Assembly (NCBI GenBank): GCA_014859265.1
Contig: JACUUN010000003.1
Coordinates: 836 to 64,835, forward strand
DNA length: 64,000 nt
Source of the DNA: Coriobacteriia bacterium
GTDB lineage: Bacteria; Actinomycetota; Coriobacteriia; Anaerosomatales; SLCP01
Direction of reading: 5' to 3'
Shown: in pieces, positions 38,909-43,366 of the stretch
Layout: every line of letters starts with the position of its first letter
How positions within the stretch are numbered: the stretch's first letter is position 1
Made by a program: the position numbers and the translations under genes
The notes under the pieces: model-generated
What the model was told of the DNA's origin: nothing
The model's input: the letters and a program-made list of their open reading frames with translations, nothing else
The model's database searches: none

Positions 38909-40015
38909 CTATCCGAGCCGCACAGGCATTAGCAGGTAGAGGAATCCCTCATCCCCGGAGCTGGTGATGACCCCGGGCTTAAGCGGACTTACTATGCTGA
39001 TTCGTACCGAATCGCCCTCCGCCGCGAGCAAGCCGTCGAGCAGGAACGCGTGGTTGAACGCAATCTCCACGTCCGGCCCCTCGACCTTAGCCATCAAGTC
39101 TTCGGAGGCATCTCCGACGTCTTGGGTCGTGGCCGAGAGGCTGAGGGTTTGGTCCTCGGTGTTGACGGTAAGGCGCAGCGGAGTGTTGTGTTGAGCGAGG
39201 AGAGAGACCCTCTTGACCGCTGCAAGGGCATCTTCCCTCGGTACGTCCACGGTTGTCTCGGTCTCCTTCGGAATGAGTTGCCGGTAGTTCGGAAACGTGC
39301 CCTCTATCCTCCGGGCTACGAACTCCGTGGTCCCGAACGTAAAGACTGCTTGATTCTCGTTGACCCCTAATGTGATCTCTTCAGATTCCGGAGCGAGACG
39401 GGCCACCTCCTCCATCACTTTTCCGGGGACTATGGCCTGTATATCCTCGAGCGATCCTTCCTCGATTATCGATTCCTTTACCGCTAGACGATACGAATCC
39501 GTTGACACCATTCTGACGGTCTGCCCTTCTACGGACAGAAGGACCCCTGTGAGAACAGGTCTTGTCTCGTCCCTGCTCACCGCTTTAGAGACATGCCGGA
39601 TGATCTCGGTGATTCTTGAAGCCGGCAGAGATATAGATTTCTCGGGCTCCACTCTTGGGAACTTCGGGAAGTCATCTGCCGGAAGCGTTCTTACGGCAAA
39701 GGAAGACTGCAAGCAAGACACCGAGAGGCTTTCCCCTTCCAGCGACAAAGTCACGGCCGCCTCGGGAAGAGAGCGGACGATCTCGGTGAAGAGTTTGCCG
39801 GGTACAACGATCGTTCCCTTTCTTTCCACTGAAACGAGAGGAAGGCTCCTGCGAACCGACACCTCAAGGTCGGTTGATTGAAGCGTCACCGCCCCTTCTT
39901 GGGAAGCCGACACCAGGATTCCAGAGAGAATCGGGAGGGTTGAGCGAGACGAAAGTCCTCTACTTACTGCCATGAGGGCTTCGACGAGTTCTCCTCTGGC
40001 GACTGTCAGCTTCAT
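38909..40015 (-). CDS. dnaN: DNA polymerase III beta sliding clamp
   Basis: 368 aa, MKLTVARGELVEAL..., three-domain clamp pattern, C-terminal LLMPVRL. Confidence 0.95.
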   Translation of the reverse strand: MKLTVARGELVEALMAVSRGLSSRSTLPILSGILVSASQEGAVTLQSTDLEVSVRRSLPLVSVERKGTIVVPGKLFTEIVRSLPEAAVTLSLEGESLSVSCLQSSFAVRTLPADDFPKFPRVEPEKSISLPASRITEIIRHVSKAVSRDETRPVLTGVLLSVEGQTVRMVSTDSYRLAVKESIIEEGSLEDIQAIVPGKVMEEVARLAPESEEITLGVNENQAVFTFGTTEFVARRIEGTFPNYRQLIPKETETTVDVPREDALAAVKRVSLLAQHNTPLRLTVNTEDQTLSLSATTQDVGDASEDLMAKVEGPDVEIAFNHAFLLDGLLAAEGDSVRISIVSPLKPGVITSSGDEGFLYLLMPVRLG

Positions 40016-40253
40016 CTCTTCTGTTCCTTTCTATATATCTTCAGTCAATAACAGTAGTAATAAGGGTTGTGGGACGTGTGGATAGACCCGATTGCTCCTT
40101 GTTATGTCCGGTGTGTCCACTGTAGAGAACATGTGCGCGAAGTGTTACTCCCTATCCACATATTCCTCAGACTTACTTGCGGGTCCACAGATGGGGGAAA
40201 CGTTCCCCAGGCGCTCCACCGTTCTTCCACAAGGGTATCCACAGGGAGAACCA
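40016..40253. other. oriC segment in the dnaA-dnaN spacer (DnaA boxes plus an AT-rich stretch)
   Basis: DnaA-box-like 9-mers: TGTGGATAG (40076-40084), CTATCCACA (40152-40160), GTATCCACA (40235-40243). There is also an AT-rich tract, ctatatatcttcagtcaataacagtagtaataa, near 40031-40063. Confidence 0.7.
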
Positions 40254-41639
40254 TCAGCTCTTCTGCCGTATCTGATTAGTGAGTGCCTGGATCTGGTTGT
40301 AGACCTCACGATCGGCATTCATCATCTTTTCGATCTTCGCCTTCGCATGCATGACCGTTGTGTGGTCACGGCCCCCGAATTCGGTTCCGATGGCCGGTAA
40401 GGAGAGCTCTGTCAGTTCTCGAGTAAGATACATAGCGATTTGGCGCGGATACACTATTGACTGCGAGCGCTTCCCTCCGATGAGCTCCGAATGAGAAAGT
40501 GAGTAGTACTTACATACCTCTCGTTGAATAGTGGAGAGAGTAATCGGGCGCTTCGTTCTCTCAGGGAAGATATCTTTTAGGACGTTGCGCGCAAGTTCTA
40601 TGTCGACCGGGTGGCGCGTGAGAGAGCTAAAAGCCATCACGCGAATAAGGGCCCCCTCAAGTTCCCGAATGTTCGAAGATACTCTGTCGGCCACGAATGA
40701 CAGAACGTCATCCGGGACAGCGAGATTCTGCACCTCGATGTTTCTCCTGAGGATGGCGATGCGCGTCTCGAGGTCAGGAGGCTGGATGTCGGTGATGAGA
40801 CCCATCTCGAAACGGCTGCGCAACCGCTCCTCGAGTTTCTCTATGTCCTTAGGCGGGCGGTCCGAGGACAGGACTACCTGCTTCCCGGCCTGCTGAAGAG
40901 TGTTAAAAGTGTGGAAGAACTCCTCCTGCGTACCCTCCTTGCCCTTCAAGAACTGGATGTCGTCGACCAGGAGGACATCGTTCGTCCGGTATTGACGCCG
41001 GAATCCATCGATACGCTTCTTGTCGCGATCGCCAATCGAGTTGATGAAGTCGTTTGTGAACTGCTCGGTCGAAACGTACTTCACCTTCAGGTGGGAGAAG
41101 CTCATCTGCACATACTGACCGATTGCTTGCAGCAGGTGTGTCTTGCCGAGACCGACGCCGCCGTAGATGAAAAGGGGATTGTATGCCCTGCCTGGAGCTT
41201 CGGCGACGGCAAGCGCGGCTGCGTGCGCGAACTGGTTGGACGCGCCAATCACGTACGAGTCGAAGGTGTACTTGGGGTTGAATTCGCCGTTAGCAGGCCT
41301 GGGAGGCGCATGTGTCTCGATATCCGGGACGGGGGTTACGTCCGAATCCACAGCAGCATCAGCTTCGACCGCGGACACCTTTGGCTCAGGCGGAACCGTG
41401 AATTCCACCGAGAGCTTCCGGCCAAGGACCTGGAGGAGGGCGGATTTCAGCAGTCCGGAGTAGCGGGACTCGAGCCACTCGCGTGCGAACTCGTTCTGTA
41501 CCGCCACCACGAGATAGTCGTCCACAATCTCAACCGGAGAGGTGTGTTCGAACCACGTCTTGAACGTCGGAGTGTTCAGCTCCGACCGGATGACATCGAG
41601 CACGTCGGACCAGATCTGTTCCACGTCGTACGTTTGCAT
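40254..41639 (-). CDS. dnaA: chromosomal replication initiator protein DnaA
   Basis: AAA+ Walker [12 protein letters not shown], sensor motifs, C-terminal DNA-binding signature (YPRQIAMYL...[11 protein letters not shown]). ATG at 41639 is preceded by GAGGGGGAG. The track start at 41684 would overlap the upstream gene. Confidence 0.95.
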
Positions 41640-41656
41640 CGCTCCCCCTCGGGACA

Positions 41657-42526
41657 TCATTGGGCGAACAGGCTGTCGAGACACGACGAGCCCTCGCTTG
41701 TGAGGACGCGCTTGCCGGATGCGTCAGACTCAATAAGGCCGCTGTGCTCGAGATAGGCAAGGTCGCGGTAGGCGGTCGAGAGGGCCACCGAGAGCTCCTT
41801 AGATACTATAGTAGGGCCGACCTCCCCCAACTCGAGGACGAGTGACAACACCTGCTTCTGGCGCGTCGTGAGCGGGGGGGAACCAGCAAAGGGAGAGGGC
41901 GGATCCTCCTCTTCCAGAGAGCCGCCGGGGGCCTCATCGCCAGAAGGCGCGGGAGTGGGTCGTGAAGCCCGTACGGTGACGACGGTTCCGTATCCGAGGT
42001 TGTCGTCGATTTCCAGGCTCCCCCCCGAGAACCCGAGGAAGTCTTTGACGATAGGCAGTCCGGAACCGACTCCCCGTATGATTCGCTTCATGCGGTAGGT
42101 AGCAGTCGTGAAGCCGGGCAACAACGCGCGCTGCTTATCGCTGATGCCGGGACCCTGGTCAGCAAAGCGGATCGTCTGGCCACTGTCCAATATAGACACG
42201 ACGGGCTCACGAAAGTCGGCGTGAATGAAGTTCTCGGCCACCTCGCGGATGACCGTATAGGGGACGCCCCCACCCGCCTCGCGAGAGTGAGCGAAGACTC
42301 TCGCAGCTATCTGCTCGACGAATTCGGCCTCTGTGGAGAAGGTGACCTCCTCGGTGCGGGGAGCGGCTGCGGGAGCATCGTAGATGGCGATTCGGGCAGA
42401 CTGTTCCGGCCCGTGCGTTGTCCCGGTGGCGGGCGGCGCAACGATAACGGAAGAATCCCTCCCGCGGTCCCCTCTCGAAACGGCGGGCCGGCCGCCGAAG
42501 AAGCTCTTCACGTACTCCCCCATCAC
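41657..42526 (-). CDS. GHKL-type ATPase domain protein with a C-terminal winged-helix DNA-binding domain, function unknown
   Basis: Bergerat-fold motifs [10 protein letters not shown] (N box), DQGPGI (G1), GVGSGLPIV (G2). Then a Pro/Glu-rich linker and an HTH-like [47 protein letters not shown]. The stop is 17 nt upstream of the dnaA ATG. Confidence 0.7.
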
Positions 42527-42539
42527 TTTCCACGGTCGT

Positions 42540-43070
42540 GCGGTTCGTCCACACGCTTATCAACAGCTGCGGACTCGCCGCAAAATCCTTAAACACCTGC
42601 AACCTGCCGTAGCCACCTGCGGGTCTCTGGCCGACGCTCCGAGGACTCACGGCCCCGACAAGGGCTTTTCGCTCTTATCCACAGGGCTTTCCACATCTGT
42701 GGAGACCCGCTTTCGTTCCCGCTCCCAGAACCCTCAAGCTGCCAGCGTAGGGGCTTCCAGCGGGGTTCTGGCTTTCCTCTCCTGTTGAAAAAGGGAAGGA
42801 TTTGGCTTTCGGTGTTGTGGATAGAACCCGGAGGCGGGTGCCTCAGCTCCGTACTCCTGTGAAGAAAAGCGATTCGAGAGAATCGTGGTGGAGGAAACAC
42901 CGTGCTGGCATATGTCCTGAACAGGTGTTTTCAAGGTTGTCCCTAGGGATTACGAATCCCATCAGGCACGACCGATGGTAACAAACCAGGACATGCACAA
43001 CAATGCAGAAGGCGGACTTATCCACAGGTTCAACAAGCGCACACGCTGGGTTTTCCACACTGTCCACAGA
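42540..43070. other. DnaA-box cluster in the rpmH / GHKL-gene divergent spacer (second oriC or dnaA-promoter segment)
   Basis: Perfect TTATCCACA at 42675-42683 and 43018-43026. Near-consensus boxes: TTATCAACA (about 42557), TTTCCACA (about 42688), TGTGGATAG (42816-42824), TTTTCCACA (43051-43059), TGTCCACA (43061-43068). GC is lower than the flanks. Confidence 0.6.
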
Positions 43071-43231
43071 TTTGATCGGAGTTTGCCGCCCGTTATCAGA
43101 CAGGCGGTCAAGGCTAAGACACCAAAGTGGAGCCGTCTGACGCGCGGCGTCGTCGTTGACACCGCATCAGAGCGACGCATACAATCAGTGGGCTTTGCTC
43201 CCGTTCGGGAGCTGAATCGGAGGAATCAGCC

Positions 43232-43366
43232 GTGAAGAGGACTTACCAGCCCAACAACCGAAAGCGTAGCAAGACGCACGGCTTTCGCGTGCGCATGTCG
43301 ACGCGTGCCGGCCGCCGCATACTTGCGAACCGTCGTCGCAAGGGCCGCGAGGTACTGTCGGCCTGA
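43232..43366 (+). CDS. rpmH: 50S ribosomal protein L34
   Basis: Translates to [44 protein letters not shown] (44 aa). GTG after GGAGGA. It is too short to appear in the ORF track. Confidence 0.93.

Follow-up and report, generated by a model that had tools for sequence, protein, structure and literature searches.

Here, we describe a gene, hereafter X, that lies directly upstream of dnaA in a 64,000-nucleotide stretch of a Coriobacteriia genome (assembly GCA_014859265.1, contig JACUUN010000003.1; the whole stretch is referred to as the window) and that is, judged from sequence and gene context, a strong candidate for a previously unrecognised regulator of the initiation of chromosome replication. 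X probably acts on replication initiation or on dnaA expression in some way; more tentatively, its target may be DnaA protein itself or the orisome, which it would modulate in an ATP-dependent manner while tethered to DNA. The gene is under a constraint equal to that of dnaA, has a very long history of linkage to it, and encodes ATP-using as well as putative DNA-binding modules; few leads that genomics offers through guilt by association could be stronger.

How DnaA is controlled has been worked out for only a few model organisms. All accessory DnaA regulators known to us are lineage-specific, and we know of none for the Coriobacteriia, for Rubrobacter-like and other deep Actinomycetota, or for the uncultured CSP1-3 phylum; the Coriobacteriia include Eggerthella, Gordonibacter, and Collinsella, which are abundant bacteria of the human gut. 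If X acts on DnaA, replication control would gain a regulator of a biochemically novel kind (GHKL), which might also be the first kinase or partner-switch dedicated to a bacterial initiator; if it is merely a transcription factor, it would still set dnaA expression in these phyla. The features of the locus are collected in Table 1.

Table 1. Features of the rpmH-X-dnaA-dnaN region, in window coordinates; residue numbers of X follow the longest open reading frame.
Feature	Position	Strand	Details
dnaN	38909..40015	-	downstream of the trio/AT-rich element
Lowest-GC stretch	40010-40069		33% GC, at the dnaA-dnaN spacer
dnaA-dnaN spacer	40016..40253	-	238 bp; downstream half of the bipartite origin
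DnaA-trio-like run	about 40046-40063		TTA-TTA-CTA-CTG-TTA, in the dnaA-dnaN spacer
Three DnaA boxes, dnaA-dnaN spacer	40077-40085, 40152-40160, 40235-40243
dnaA	40254..41639	-	461 aa, ATG at 41639; Pfam DnaA_N, Bac_DnaA, Bac_DnaA_C
X-dnaA gap	41640..41656	-	17 nt; reads TGTCCCGAGGGGGAGCG, contains the dnaA Shine-Dalgarno sequence GAGGGGGAG
Gene X (GHKL/HATPase_c plus winged helix)	41657..42511	-	about 284 aa; most likely start GTG at 42511
C-terminal winged helix-turn-helix	41660..41872	-	residues 219-289; DeoR/TrmB/IclR/MarR-like
Linker	41873..41965	-	residues 188-218; disordered, poorly conserved
GHKL/Bergerat ATP-binding domain	41966..42331	-	residues 66-187; histidine-kinase CA type
G2 box	42059-42073	-	G152-x-G154-x-G156
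G1 box	42146-42160	-	D123-x-G125-x-G127
N box	42218-42244	-	E95-x-x-E98-N99
N-terminal beta-hairpin	42341..42400	-	residues 43-62; motif R-I-A-V-Y-D ... A-P-R
rpmH-X spacer	42512..43231	.	705 bp; upstream DnaA-box cluster
One-mismatch DnaA boxes, rpmH-X spacer	42557, 42816, 43051
Perfect DnaA boxes, rpmH-X spacer	42675-42683 and 43018-43026
Two-mismatch DnaA boxes, rpmH-X spacer	further ones, e.g., 42687-42695
Candidate X-dnaA promoter	42975..43006	-	TTGTTG, 17 nt, TG-T-TACCAT (extended -10)
rpmH promoter	43156-43185		near-consensus; TTGACA, 18 nt, TACAAT
rpmH	43232..43366	+	divergent from X

There is very little doubt that X truly encodes a protein and that it opens an X-dnaA unit as its first cistron. 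A preliminary description, made from the letters alone, had noted an open reading frame of 289 aa with N, G1, and G2 motifs and a C-terminal HTH-like domain; the frame was found (41657-42526, minus strand; TGA at 41659-41657), as were the motifs and both domains. The start most likely lies five codons inside this longest frame, judging from its context: the product would begin M-K-S-F-F, a GGGGGAG Shine-Dalgarno sequence stands just ahead, and both this sequence and the MKxFF motif are kept in alignments of relatives. The family is large, with 394 clusters (at 50% identity) matching its profile at E<=1e-30. It is labelled "ATP-binding protein" in public annotation, no Pfam or NCBIfam entry describes it, and full-text literature searches returned no description of it. 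Annotation should name the X family, rather than "ATP-binding protein" or "histidine kinase", and the start belongs at the conserved MKxFF.

The architecture of X is nearly beyond question: its ATP site, of the histidine-kinase type, is intact, and a flexible tether, which varies in length, leads from there to a winged helix like those of DeoR/TrmB. The ATP site is matched by Pfam HATPase_c (PF02518) at residues 90-187 (E 2.9e-8; 34.6 bits vs. a cutoff of 26.4), and this model exceeds its gathering cutoff in all 60 of the 60 family members scanned. In alignments of 26 and 60 homologues, the N, G1, and G2 residues are invariant or nearly so, and the same holds for G180. By Foldseek and profile matches (EnvZ, CpxA, HK853, KinB, WalK, CheA, BCK), the fold is nearest to the CA domains of histidine kinases and to the histidine-kinase-fold Ser kinases BCK/PDK. 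Ahead of this domain stands a beta-hairpin that no Pfam family covers in X or the 60 members; A47, Y49, and P56 are invariant in the X alignments, and the two strands (residues 43-48 and 57-62) were modelled by AF2 with pLDDT >90.

The linker that follows is of low model confidence (pLDDT 51-58), with variable and gapped alignment columns, and its length ranges from ~30 to >150 residues across the family, being far longer in Eggerthellaceae and Collinsella-type orthologues. Homologues of 340-490 aa match the profile in two stretches without an extra Pfam domain; added domains were considered and rejected, as 10 such proteins (382-491 aa) hold only HATPase_c and the winged helix, and their additional length seems to reflect over-called starts or else long linkers. 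At the C-terminus, weak Pfam matches to DeoR/TrmB/IclR winged helices cover residues 219-271 of X; among the 60 members, matches to TrmB, IclR, and HVO_A0261_N are found in 25, 21, and 32, respectively, and TrmB, IclR, MarR, and HTH_24 pass their own cutoffs in several. The AF2 model places helices at residues 221-233, 238-245, and 249-261 and strands at 265-267 and 273-275 (pLDDT 95-98), and profile matches in the PDB include the PhiH1 repressor, AdcR/ZitR, and IclR. This three-helix bundle with a beta wing is a putative DNA-binding domain.

The same modules could belong to an ATP-sensing one-component transcription factor, a reading that we consider rather unlikely: the GHKL domain would sense ATP/ADP (the energy state) or dimerise on ATP, and the winged helix would repress or activate the X-dnaA promoter, tuning dnaA transcription while leaving DnaA protein and the orisome untouched. 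Such a function is in keeping with the kinship of the winged helix to those of ligand-sensor regulators (Csa3/CasR CARF-wHTH, TIGR01884; TrmB; IclR; MarR), with the best full-length Foldseek match (3LMM), itself a predicted regulator built GHKL-then-wHTH, and with the first place in an operon that X may regulate, which is typical for autoregulators. However, the catalytic Glu and all phosphoryl-transfer motifs are invariant, beyond the needs of a mere sensor, and a long, disordered linker of variable length is poor for allostery; it would rather suit a module that localises the protein than one under tight allosteric coupling.

The DnaA boxes around X define its setting. The box sequence TTATCCACA occurs, with at most one mismatch, 12 times in the window (3.2 +/- 1.8 expected), a number reached in 0 of 100 shuffles. 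Five of these boxes lie in the rpmH-X spacer, where ~10 box positions are invariant in an alignment of 10 family-level relatives, and the density of boxes upstream of X across 80 loci is 6.8 per kb vs. 0.25-0.28 in coding DNA; none were found in the 17-nt gap between X and dnaA or in 5.3 kb of such gaps. It had been noted earlier that the box cluster lies upstream of X and not directly before dnaA; the five boxes and the empty gap bear this out, but the picture of the origin was incomplete, since three more boxes, DnaA trios, and an AT-rich stretch occupy the dnaA-dnaN spacer. The lowest-GC 40-mer is located in this spacer in 47 of 57 loci, and strand-specific (C/T)TA runs, following the published definition of DnaA trios (PMC6669920), number 31 in 14.5 kb of dnaA-dnaN spacers vs. 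2 in 38.9 kb of upstream DNA. With trios and AT-rich DNA downstream of dnaA, the origin is thus Bacillus-like and bipartite, X belonging to its upstream, promoter-bearing half, and the unwinding site likely lies in the dnaA-dnaN spacer rather than beside X. That the X-dnaA unit sits between the two DnaA-box clusters of such an origin is as good as certain.

This position invites a structural explanation, which we regard as very unlikely, in which X is an architectural or segregation factor of the origin region: it would bind DNA near oriC, and its ATP-driven self-association would loop or bridge the two box clusters, or organise and segregate the origin. X would then be a neighbour of dnaA simply because genes cluster near the origin, as parAB and gidAB do. 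Some GHKL proteins (MutL, GyrB, MORC) are indeed ATP-driven dimerising clamps, and the conserved N-terminal hairpin of X could, speculatively, serve as a strap, but the GHKL domain of X is of the histidine-kinase CA type rather than the GyrB/MutL/MORC type and lacks a transducer domain, and we know of no ATP-driven dimerisation of histidine-kinase-type CA domains. X does lie between the halves of a bipartite origin, which in B. subtilis are thought to interact via looping (PMC6669920), yet its coupling to dnaA, at translational range, is tighter than mere origin-proximal clustering.

Upstream of X, the candidate X-dnaA promoter would leave a leader of ~457 nt containing several DnaA boxes. In the 10-sequence spacer alignment (columns ~312-340), the TTGT and TGnTAnnnT positions of this element do not vary; it was recognised by consensus match and phylogenetic footprint only and is absent from the list of a strict promoter scan. 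A conserved promoter-like element with lineage-conserved blocks just downstream of it would suit a transcriptional role for X. In k-mer enrichment across the upstream spacers of 76 diverse X loci, however, no common motif emerged except DnaA-box variants, which tells against transcriptional control through a family-wide operator and also against X as a modulator of DnaA. One block, CTTGAAAACACCTG, is present in 9 of 78 loci, always ~500-550 nt upstream, and is lineage-specific rather than a family-wide operator for the winged helix. Two other kinds of element were considered and rejected: terminator-like hairpins (42885-42870 and 42462-42449, minus strand) occur at chance level (2 vs. 2.9 expected) and are not conserved, and an Rfam search for known RNAs in the spacer gave only a chance lncRNA match and a sub-threshold AsdA match inside the dnaA coding region, which dnaA conservation explains.

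At the junction, the earlier observation that X ends 17 nt before the dnaA ATG, with the dnaA Shine-Dalgarno sequence in the gap, was confirmed, and relatives align to DnaA from residues 1-5. (A Pfam Hda_lid match at the locus belongs to DnaA itself and not to X.) The preliminary description had allowed for a terminator of X and an independent dnaA promoter in the gap; across 66 loci, the gap has a median of 16.5 nt (10th-90th percentile 9-61) and is too short to hold both, although a dnaA promoter may lie inside the 3' end of X. Because box-rich, promoter-bearing DNA is found only upstream of X, the production of X should go along with that of DnaA and be subject to the same regulation through DnaA boxes.

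The arrangement is also old. The order of rpmH, boxes, X, and dnaA, with rpmH divergent, is kept in all loci where both X and dnaA were seen: in 80 of 80 named loci, among them those of CSP1-3/Sysuimicrobiota and Limnochordia, X and dnaA share a strand with X immediately ahead, and the arrangement is present in 139 of 151 Coriobacteriia genomes. These counts settle the earlier question of whether rpmH-X-dnaA is conserved in related genomes, and they leave no room for the random insertion considered alongside it, X being single-copy in its carriers and never away from dnaA where both were seen. The gene also precedes dnaA in several other deep Actinomycetota classes, is found in 55 of 61 CSP1-3/Sysuimicrobiota genomes, and occurs in a subset of Limnochordia-type Bacillota, a range of hundreds of species that spans three or more bacterial phyla. 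The X and DnaA trees contain the same clades (patristic r = 0.83), and the core of X evolves at about the rate of DnaA (patristic distance ratio 0.88). A mobile or defence origin was rejected: apart from one generic kinase match, no relative of X was found in 72,556 plasmids, none was found in 50,697 phage records, and PADLOC matched only the C-terminal winged helix, to Csa3/CasR-type models, with no match to the catalytic part.

X could nevertheless be unrelated to replication, namely a Ser/Thr kinase that works on its own, or a regulator resembling anti-sigma factors, that serves another process (stress, growth phase) and is fixed in the dnaA operon only because an old arrangement is difficult to break up; we consider this quite unlikely. 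JGI pipelines name homologues "anti-sigma regulatory factor (Ser/Thr protein kinase)", and the N box (E-x-x-x-N ... H) is akin to that of SpoIIAB/RsbW, with a weak TIGR01925 match (E 0.0055; 16.6 bits vs. a cutoff of 135), but anti-sigma models are not matched at their cutoffs. The ordinary anti-sigma or serine-kinase module that had been raised as an alternative was not recovered in other respects either: HisKA-type Pfam matches at E<=1e-3 are absent from the 60 members, PF13581 (HATPase_c_2) matches neither X nor any of them, no STAS antagonist or sigma factor gene lies between rpmH and dnaN, dnaA being downstream of X in all loci examined, and no response regulator is adjacent, the neighbours being rpmH and dnaA in 80 of 80 loci. 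X has been lost without loss of dnaA in a few lineages of Coriobacteriia (f28 genera, genome G131), and in one genome with a clean deletion the same spacer now adjoins dnaA. These losses mean that X is not indispensable everywhere, and dispensability in such backgrounds counts against a modulator of DnaA as well. On the other hand, a position kept in at least three phyla and hundreds of species, without one relocated copy, is not predicted by neutral hitch-hiking, and the congruent trees and similar constraint of the two proteins likewise speak against an unrelated function.

If DnaA protein or the orisome is indeed the target of X, the winged helix would anchor X to DNA in or near the origin region, and the GHKL domain, depending on its nucleotide, would bind, and perhaps phosphorylate, either DnaA itself or a partner bound to DnaA, much as SpoIIAB and RsbW act on sigma-F and sigma-B, whose genes follow in the same operon. 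The co-production of X and DnaA would then provide a built-in feedback on initiation. The unmatched SpoIIAB/RsbW family models and the lack of a nearby STAS antagonist weigh against this analogy, and literature searches returned no precedent for DnaA phosphorylation or for GHKL control of DnaA. A broader proposal makes X the first representative of a new class of replication-initiation regulators: a GHKL nucleotide switch or kinase, held at origin DNA by its winged helix, that is co-produced with DnaA from a DnaA-box-controlled promoter, binds or phosphorylates DnaA directly, and was ancestrally present in much of the Terrabacteria. This is possible but stays short of an even chance. The carriers behind the ancestral reading are deep Actinomycetota, including human-gut Coriobacteriia, together with CSP1-3/Sysuimicrobiota and Limnochordia-type Bacillota.

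Among known systems, the layout most resembles B. subtilis oriC (incA/B - dnaA - incC), which shares the upstream box cluster with the dnaA promoter and, between dnaA and dnaN, the succession of boxes, 3'-GAT-5' trios, and AT-rich DNA (PMC6669920); here, however, X is interposed between the upstream cluster and dnaA, and the two halves are ~0.9 kb further apart. Among proteins, residues ~66-187 are matched best, in sequence as well as in structure, by histidine kinase CA domains (KinB 3D36, WalK/YycG 3SL2, HK853, CpxA, EnvZ, CheA P4) and BCK/PDK, with which X shares the fold, the N, G1, F-like, and G2 boxes, and the ATP lid. Unlike two-component kinases, X has no DHp/HisKA, phospho-accepting His helix, sensor, or transmembrane part, and carries instead the N-terminal beta-hairpin (a beta-hairpin, not a helical hairpin, in the AF2 model) and the C-terminal winged helix.

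The B. subtilis operons spoIIAA-spoIIAB-sigF and rsbV-rsbW-sigB place a GHKL gene directly before the gene of its target: SpoIIAB acts by binding sigma-F, and RsbW by binding sigma-B. X resembles these two proteins as a small GHKL protein that lacks DHp and has an E-x-x-x-N...H type N box, and, as a working analogy, its gene stands just before, and would be co-expressed with, the gene of a potential binding partner, a DNA-binding protein of the initiator type; unlike them, it bears a winged helix. The same GHKL-then-wHTH order is found in DIP2311 of Corynebacterium diphtheriae (PDB 3LMM; a COG2865-type predicted regulator, AlbA_2 - HATPase_c_4 - wHTH), the top Foldseek match (E 7.6e-6, 274 columns, TM (query) 0.41) and the only solved structure to align over both the GHKL-like domain and the winged helix, at 14-15% identity and an rmsd of 11.5 A. 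In contrast to DIP2311, for which we know of no function and no link to dnaA, X and the 60 members lack AlbA_2 and a PF13749 match. The GHKL ATPases GyrB, MutL, Hsp90, and MORC differ further, as in X a disordered linker and winged helix, rather than a transducer domain, follow the GHKL domain; the MutL N-box gives a marginal local match (E 2e-4).

Finally, the families of Hda, YabA, SirA, Soj, DiaA, and HobA are not matched by X in Pfam or NCBIfam, and to our knowledge none of these DnaA regulators is a GHKL protein or is encoded by the first cistron of the dnaA operon. X is possibly analogous to these DnaA/oriC regulators (Soj/ParA among them) as a lineage-specific accessory of initiation, and would, in the manner of Soj, link a nucleotide state to DNA binding and to the control of DnaA.

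Gene X, which encodes a predicted GHKL ATPase with a winged helix and directly precedes dnaA, is a real and ancient gene that has been inherited vertically together with dnaA. It is present in single copy in the genome of the window (a 2.34-Mb assembly of 255 contigs, assigned to the class Coriobacteriia from the source names of close homologues), and a full-length homologue was found in 35 of 41 relatives, in all 35 adjoining dnaA upstream on the same strand. Within the Coriobacteriia, 139 of 151 genomes carry X, each in single copy, and its coordinates abut dnaA in every case in which dnaA was matched. Across the phylum (88/251 genomes) the distribution is all-or-none by family, with X in 18/18, 16/16 or 8/9 genomes of some families and in 0/17 or 0/18 of others. 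A scan of GTDB species representatives yielded 568 relatives, and among the loci of the best 80, X is followed by dnaA in 80/80, with a divergent rpmH upstream in most; these loci include Thermoleophilia, Candidatus Hakubella, CSP1-3/Sysuimicrobiota, a Limnochordia MAG, and a Clostridia MAG. The rpmH-X-dnaA arrangement, whose conservation the preliminary description had proposed to survey, is therefore widely retained. X was also detected in 55 of 61 genomes of the CSP1-3 phylum and in 19 of 151 from the phylum of the Limnochordia MAG. A family profile recovered 394 clusters (50% identity, E<=1e-30) among 1.84 billion representatives, well apart from the generic-kinase tail, and plasmid and phage searches found no X. 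The sole annotation of X in Gordonibacter, Rubneribacter badeniensis, Arabiibacter massiliensis, and Raoultibacter timonensis is "ATP-binding protein". Several MAG records with the X-dnaA pair (L026, L030, L031, L040, L049, L052, L062, L067, and L070) bear NCBI labels, including Desulfuromonadales, Eubacteriales, Aeromicrobium, Acutalibacteraceae, and Armatimonadetes, that conflict with their placement in the X and DnaA trees, and are probably mislabelled or mis-binned.

Maximum-likelihood trees of the X core (residue 58 onward) and of DnaA from 76 loci share their major clades, with correlated patristic distances (Pearson 0.83); on average, X distances are 0.88 times those of DnaA. Within the genus, identity is 75% for X and 88% for DnaA. 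X and dnaA have been inherited as a pair, and the X core is constrained about as strongly as DnaA. X was unmatched in 12 class genomes; the four inspected have rpmH and dnaA in direct divergence, 0.8-1.0 kb apart, without traces of X. For example, G131, which lacks X, has an X-bearing congener, G123, and DNA comparison of their loci (G131 L104, C6:31600-36000; G123 L107, C5:73800-77600) revealed homology in dnaA, rpmH, and blocks of the X-upstream spacer, with no counterpart of the X coding region in G131. This is a clean deletion of the whole coding region, after which the retained spacer abuts dnaA; thus, the spacer serves dnaA, and X is dispensable in some backgrounds.

The layout of the locus and of the X product is summarized below. 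As the preliminary description had stated, a 289-aa ORF ends 17 nt ahead of the dnaA ATG, and GAGGGGGAG lies within this gap; across loci, the median spacing between the X stop and the dnaA start is 16.5 nt (10th-90th percentile, 9-61). The product is probably 284 aa long, because aligned homologues start with M-K-x-F-F and the corresponding GTG, with GGGGGAG just before it, is kept in relatives. In high-GC genomes, the start of X is frequently called too far upstream, as in the window and in the public homologues P0197, P0205, P0215, and others, with over-called products reaching ~490 aa without an additional domain.

Features of the rpmH-X-dnaA-dnaN region and of the X product (residue numbers follow the 289-aa ORF; DnaA boxes counted with <=1 mismatch)
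Feature	Position	Strand	Description	Boxes per kb (80 loci)
dnaN	38909-40015	minus		
Box, trios, AT-rich DNA	40010-40085	minus	box at 40077-40085; lowest GC at 40010-40069	
600 nt after dnaA				2.6
dnaA	40254-41639	minus	ATG at 41639	0.25
AsdA-like match	41104-41165	plus		
X-dnaA gap				0
X ORF	41657-42526	minus	289 aa; stop 41659-41657; probable GTG start 42511; over-called 42512-42526	0.28
Leader block	42729-42749	minus	TACGCTGGCAGCTTGAGGGTT	
Promoter-like element	43006-42975	minus	TTGT, 17 nt, TGnTAnnnT	
rpmH-X spacer			705 bp	6.8
rpmH, rnpA, yidD, yidC, jag	beyond spacer	plus		
X part 1	~40 residues		variable N-terminus	
X part 2			conserved R-I-A-V-Y-D ... A-P-R; A47, Y49, P56 invariant	
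X part 3			GHKL; invariant E98-N99, H102, D123-x-G125-x-G127, K131, P137-G138, G152-V-G-S-G-L-P158, G180	
X part 4			gapped, variable linker	
X part 5			conserved winged helix, L-S-T-A-Y-R-D-L ... G-K-R	
Modelled beta-hairpin	residues 43-62		pLDDT above 90	
Modelled GHKL	residues 66-186		pLDDT 86-98	
Modelled linker	residues 187-218		pLDDT about 50-58	
Modelled three helices plus wing	residues 219-289		pLDDT 95-98	

The box consensus TTATCCACA occurs with <=1 mismatch at 12 window sites against 3.2 expected, a count reached in 0 of 100 shuffles. Five sites (two perfect) lie in the rpmH-X spacer, three in the dnaA-dnaN spacer, and none in the X-dnaA gap, in agreement with the earlier reading that the cluster is upstream of X and not directly upstream of dnaA. 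Directly ahead of dnaN is the lowest-GC stretch of the region (33%), itself preceded by a box and TTA-TTA-CTA-CTG-TTA; reading towards dnaN in the window, the order is a box, TTA/CTA triplet runs, the region's most AT-rich DNA, and the dnaN Shine-Dalgarno sequence. The lowest-GC 40-mer falls in the dnaA-dnaN spacer in 47 of 57 loci, and this spacer holds 31 strand-specific runs of three or more (C/T)TA triplets in 14.5 kb, against 2 such runs in upstream spacers (38.9 kb) and 0-1 in coding DNA. These triplets complement the DnaA-trio, 3'-GAT-5', defined in B. subtilis (PMC6669920). The box-trio-AT-rich order is strand-specific and is seen in the dnaA-dnaN spacers of L022-L101 (in most of 57 loci), suggesting that deep Actinomycetota, CSP1-3, and Limnochordia have a basal unwinding module of the Bacillus type. 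Box density, trio runs, and lowest-GC position together indicate a bipartite, Bacillus-like origin, with boxes and promoter upstream of dnaA and boxes, trios, and AT-rich DNA downstream, where the last two would place the unwinding side; X sits within the upstream half, probably as an extra first cistron. About ten box positions are invariant in a spacer alignment of 10 family-level relatives, as is the TTGT, 17 nt, TGnTAnnnT element, a footprint of a plausible extended -10 promoter whose transcript would have a box-laden leader of ~457 nt. In the same relatives a non-box leader block, TACGCTGGCAGCTTGAGGGTT, is nearly invariant; a second block, CTTGAAAACACCTG, some 25-45 nt past the promoter-like element, recurs in no more than 9 of 78 diverse loci. 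Both could be operators, leader-RNA elements, or nucleoid-protein sites. A sub-threshold Rfam match (31.4 bits; gathering score 52) to AsdA, a Salmonella RNA antisense to dnaA mRNA, lies on the strand opposite the dnaA Walker-A region; conservation of the dnaA coding sequence is its simplest explanation.

Pfam HATPase_c matches X residues 90-187 above the gathering score (E 2.9e-8), and the C-terminus gives weak DeoR/TrmB/IclR winged-helix matches; the domain content proposed for the ORF beforehand was thus recovered. HATPase_c was matched in 60/60 members, HisKA and HATPase_c_2, _3, and _4 in 0/60, no X-specific family was found in NCBIfam, and long public gene calls (382-491 aa) showed no further domain. 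Alignments of 26 and 60 homologues both resolve five parts, and the nearly invariant E95 completes E-x-x-x-N. An AlphaFold2 model built from the 60-sequence alignment (mean pLDDT 84.9) was compared with the PDB using Foldseek; the top match, loose (TM 0.41, 14% identity) and the only entry covering both domains, was DIP2311 of Corynebacterium diphtheriae (3LMM), followed by dozens of histidine-kinase CA domains and the Ser kinases of the same fold, BCK/PDK. In line with this, a PDB sequence profile search matched the ATP domain to KinB, WalK, CheA, and HK853, and the winged helix to PhiH1 repressor, AdcR/ZitR, and IclR. The profile and structure checks suggested for the protein alone therefore show a stand-alone histidine-kinase-type ATP domain, its catalytic motifs all intact and a phospho-accepting DHp domain absent, tethered by a linker predicted to be floppy to a DNA-binding-type domain.

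All that the preliminary description had seen in the sequence was recovered, and the genomic side of its interpretation is supported. X is placed by position for co-expression with dnaA under DnaA-box control, and its product pairs an intact ATP site with a DNA-binding-type domain. We tentatively suggest that it may modulate DnaA or the orisome in an ATP-dependent manner while tethered to DNA. Near-translational coupling would tie the production of X to that of DnaA, as for proteins acting on each other. In B. subtilis, the GHKL genes spoIIAB and rsbW immediately precede sigF and sigB, whose products they bind, a direct precedent pointing to X acting on DnaA or the orisome. The long, variable, disordered tether is a better fit to a localisation module than to allosteric control. 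Chief among the rivals is an ATP-sensing autoregulator of the X-dnaA operon, which draws on the first-gene position of X and on a winged helix resembling that of ligand-sensing regulators; we regard it as somewhat unlikely, and a kinase with an unrelated function or an architectural or segregation factor as improbable. Against all specific versions stands the result that no DNA motif other than DnaA boxes was found to be common to the whole family.

X resembles the histidine-kinase CA domain in fold and motifs. A two-component kinase was rejected (no DHp domain or regulator), as was membership in SpoIIAB/RsbW (scores below the family models, neither a STAS nor a sigma gene), GyrB/MutL/MORC (no transducer), and the COG2865-type predicted regulators represented by 3LMM (AlbA_2 absent, HATPase_c_4 unmatched). 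No homology to known DnaA regulators was found, nor any mention of X in a full-text literature search. X constitutes an undescribed, deeply conserved family in which known modules occur in a new combination and context.
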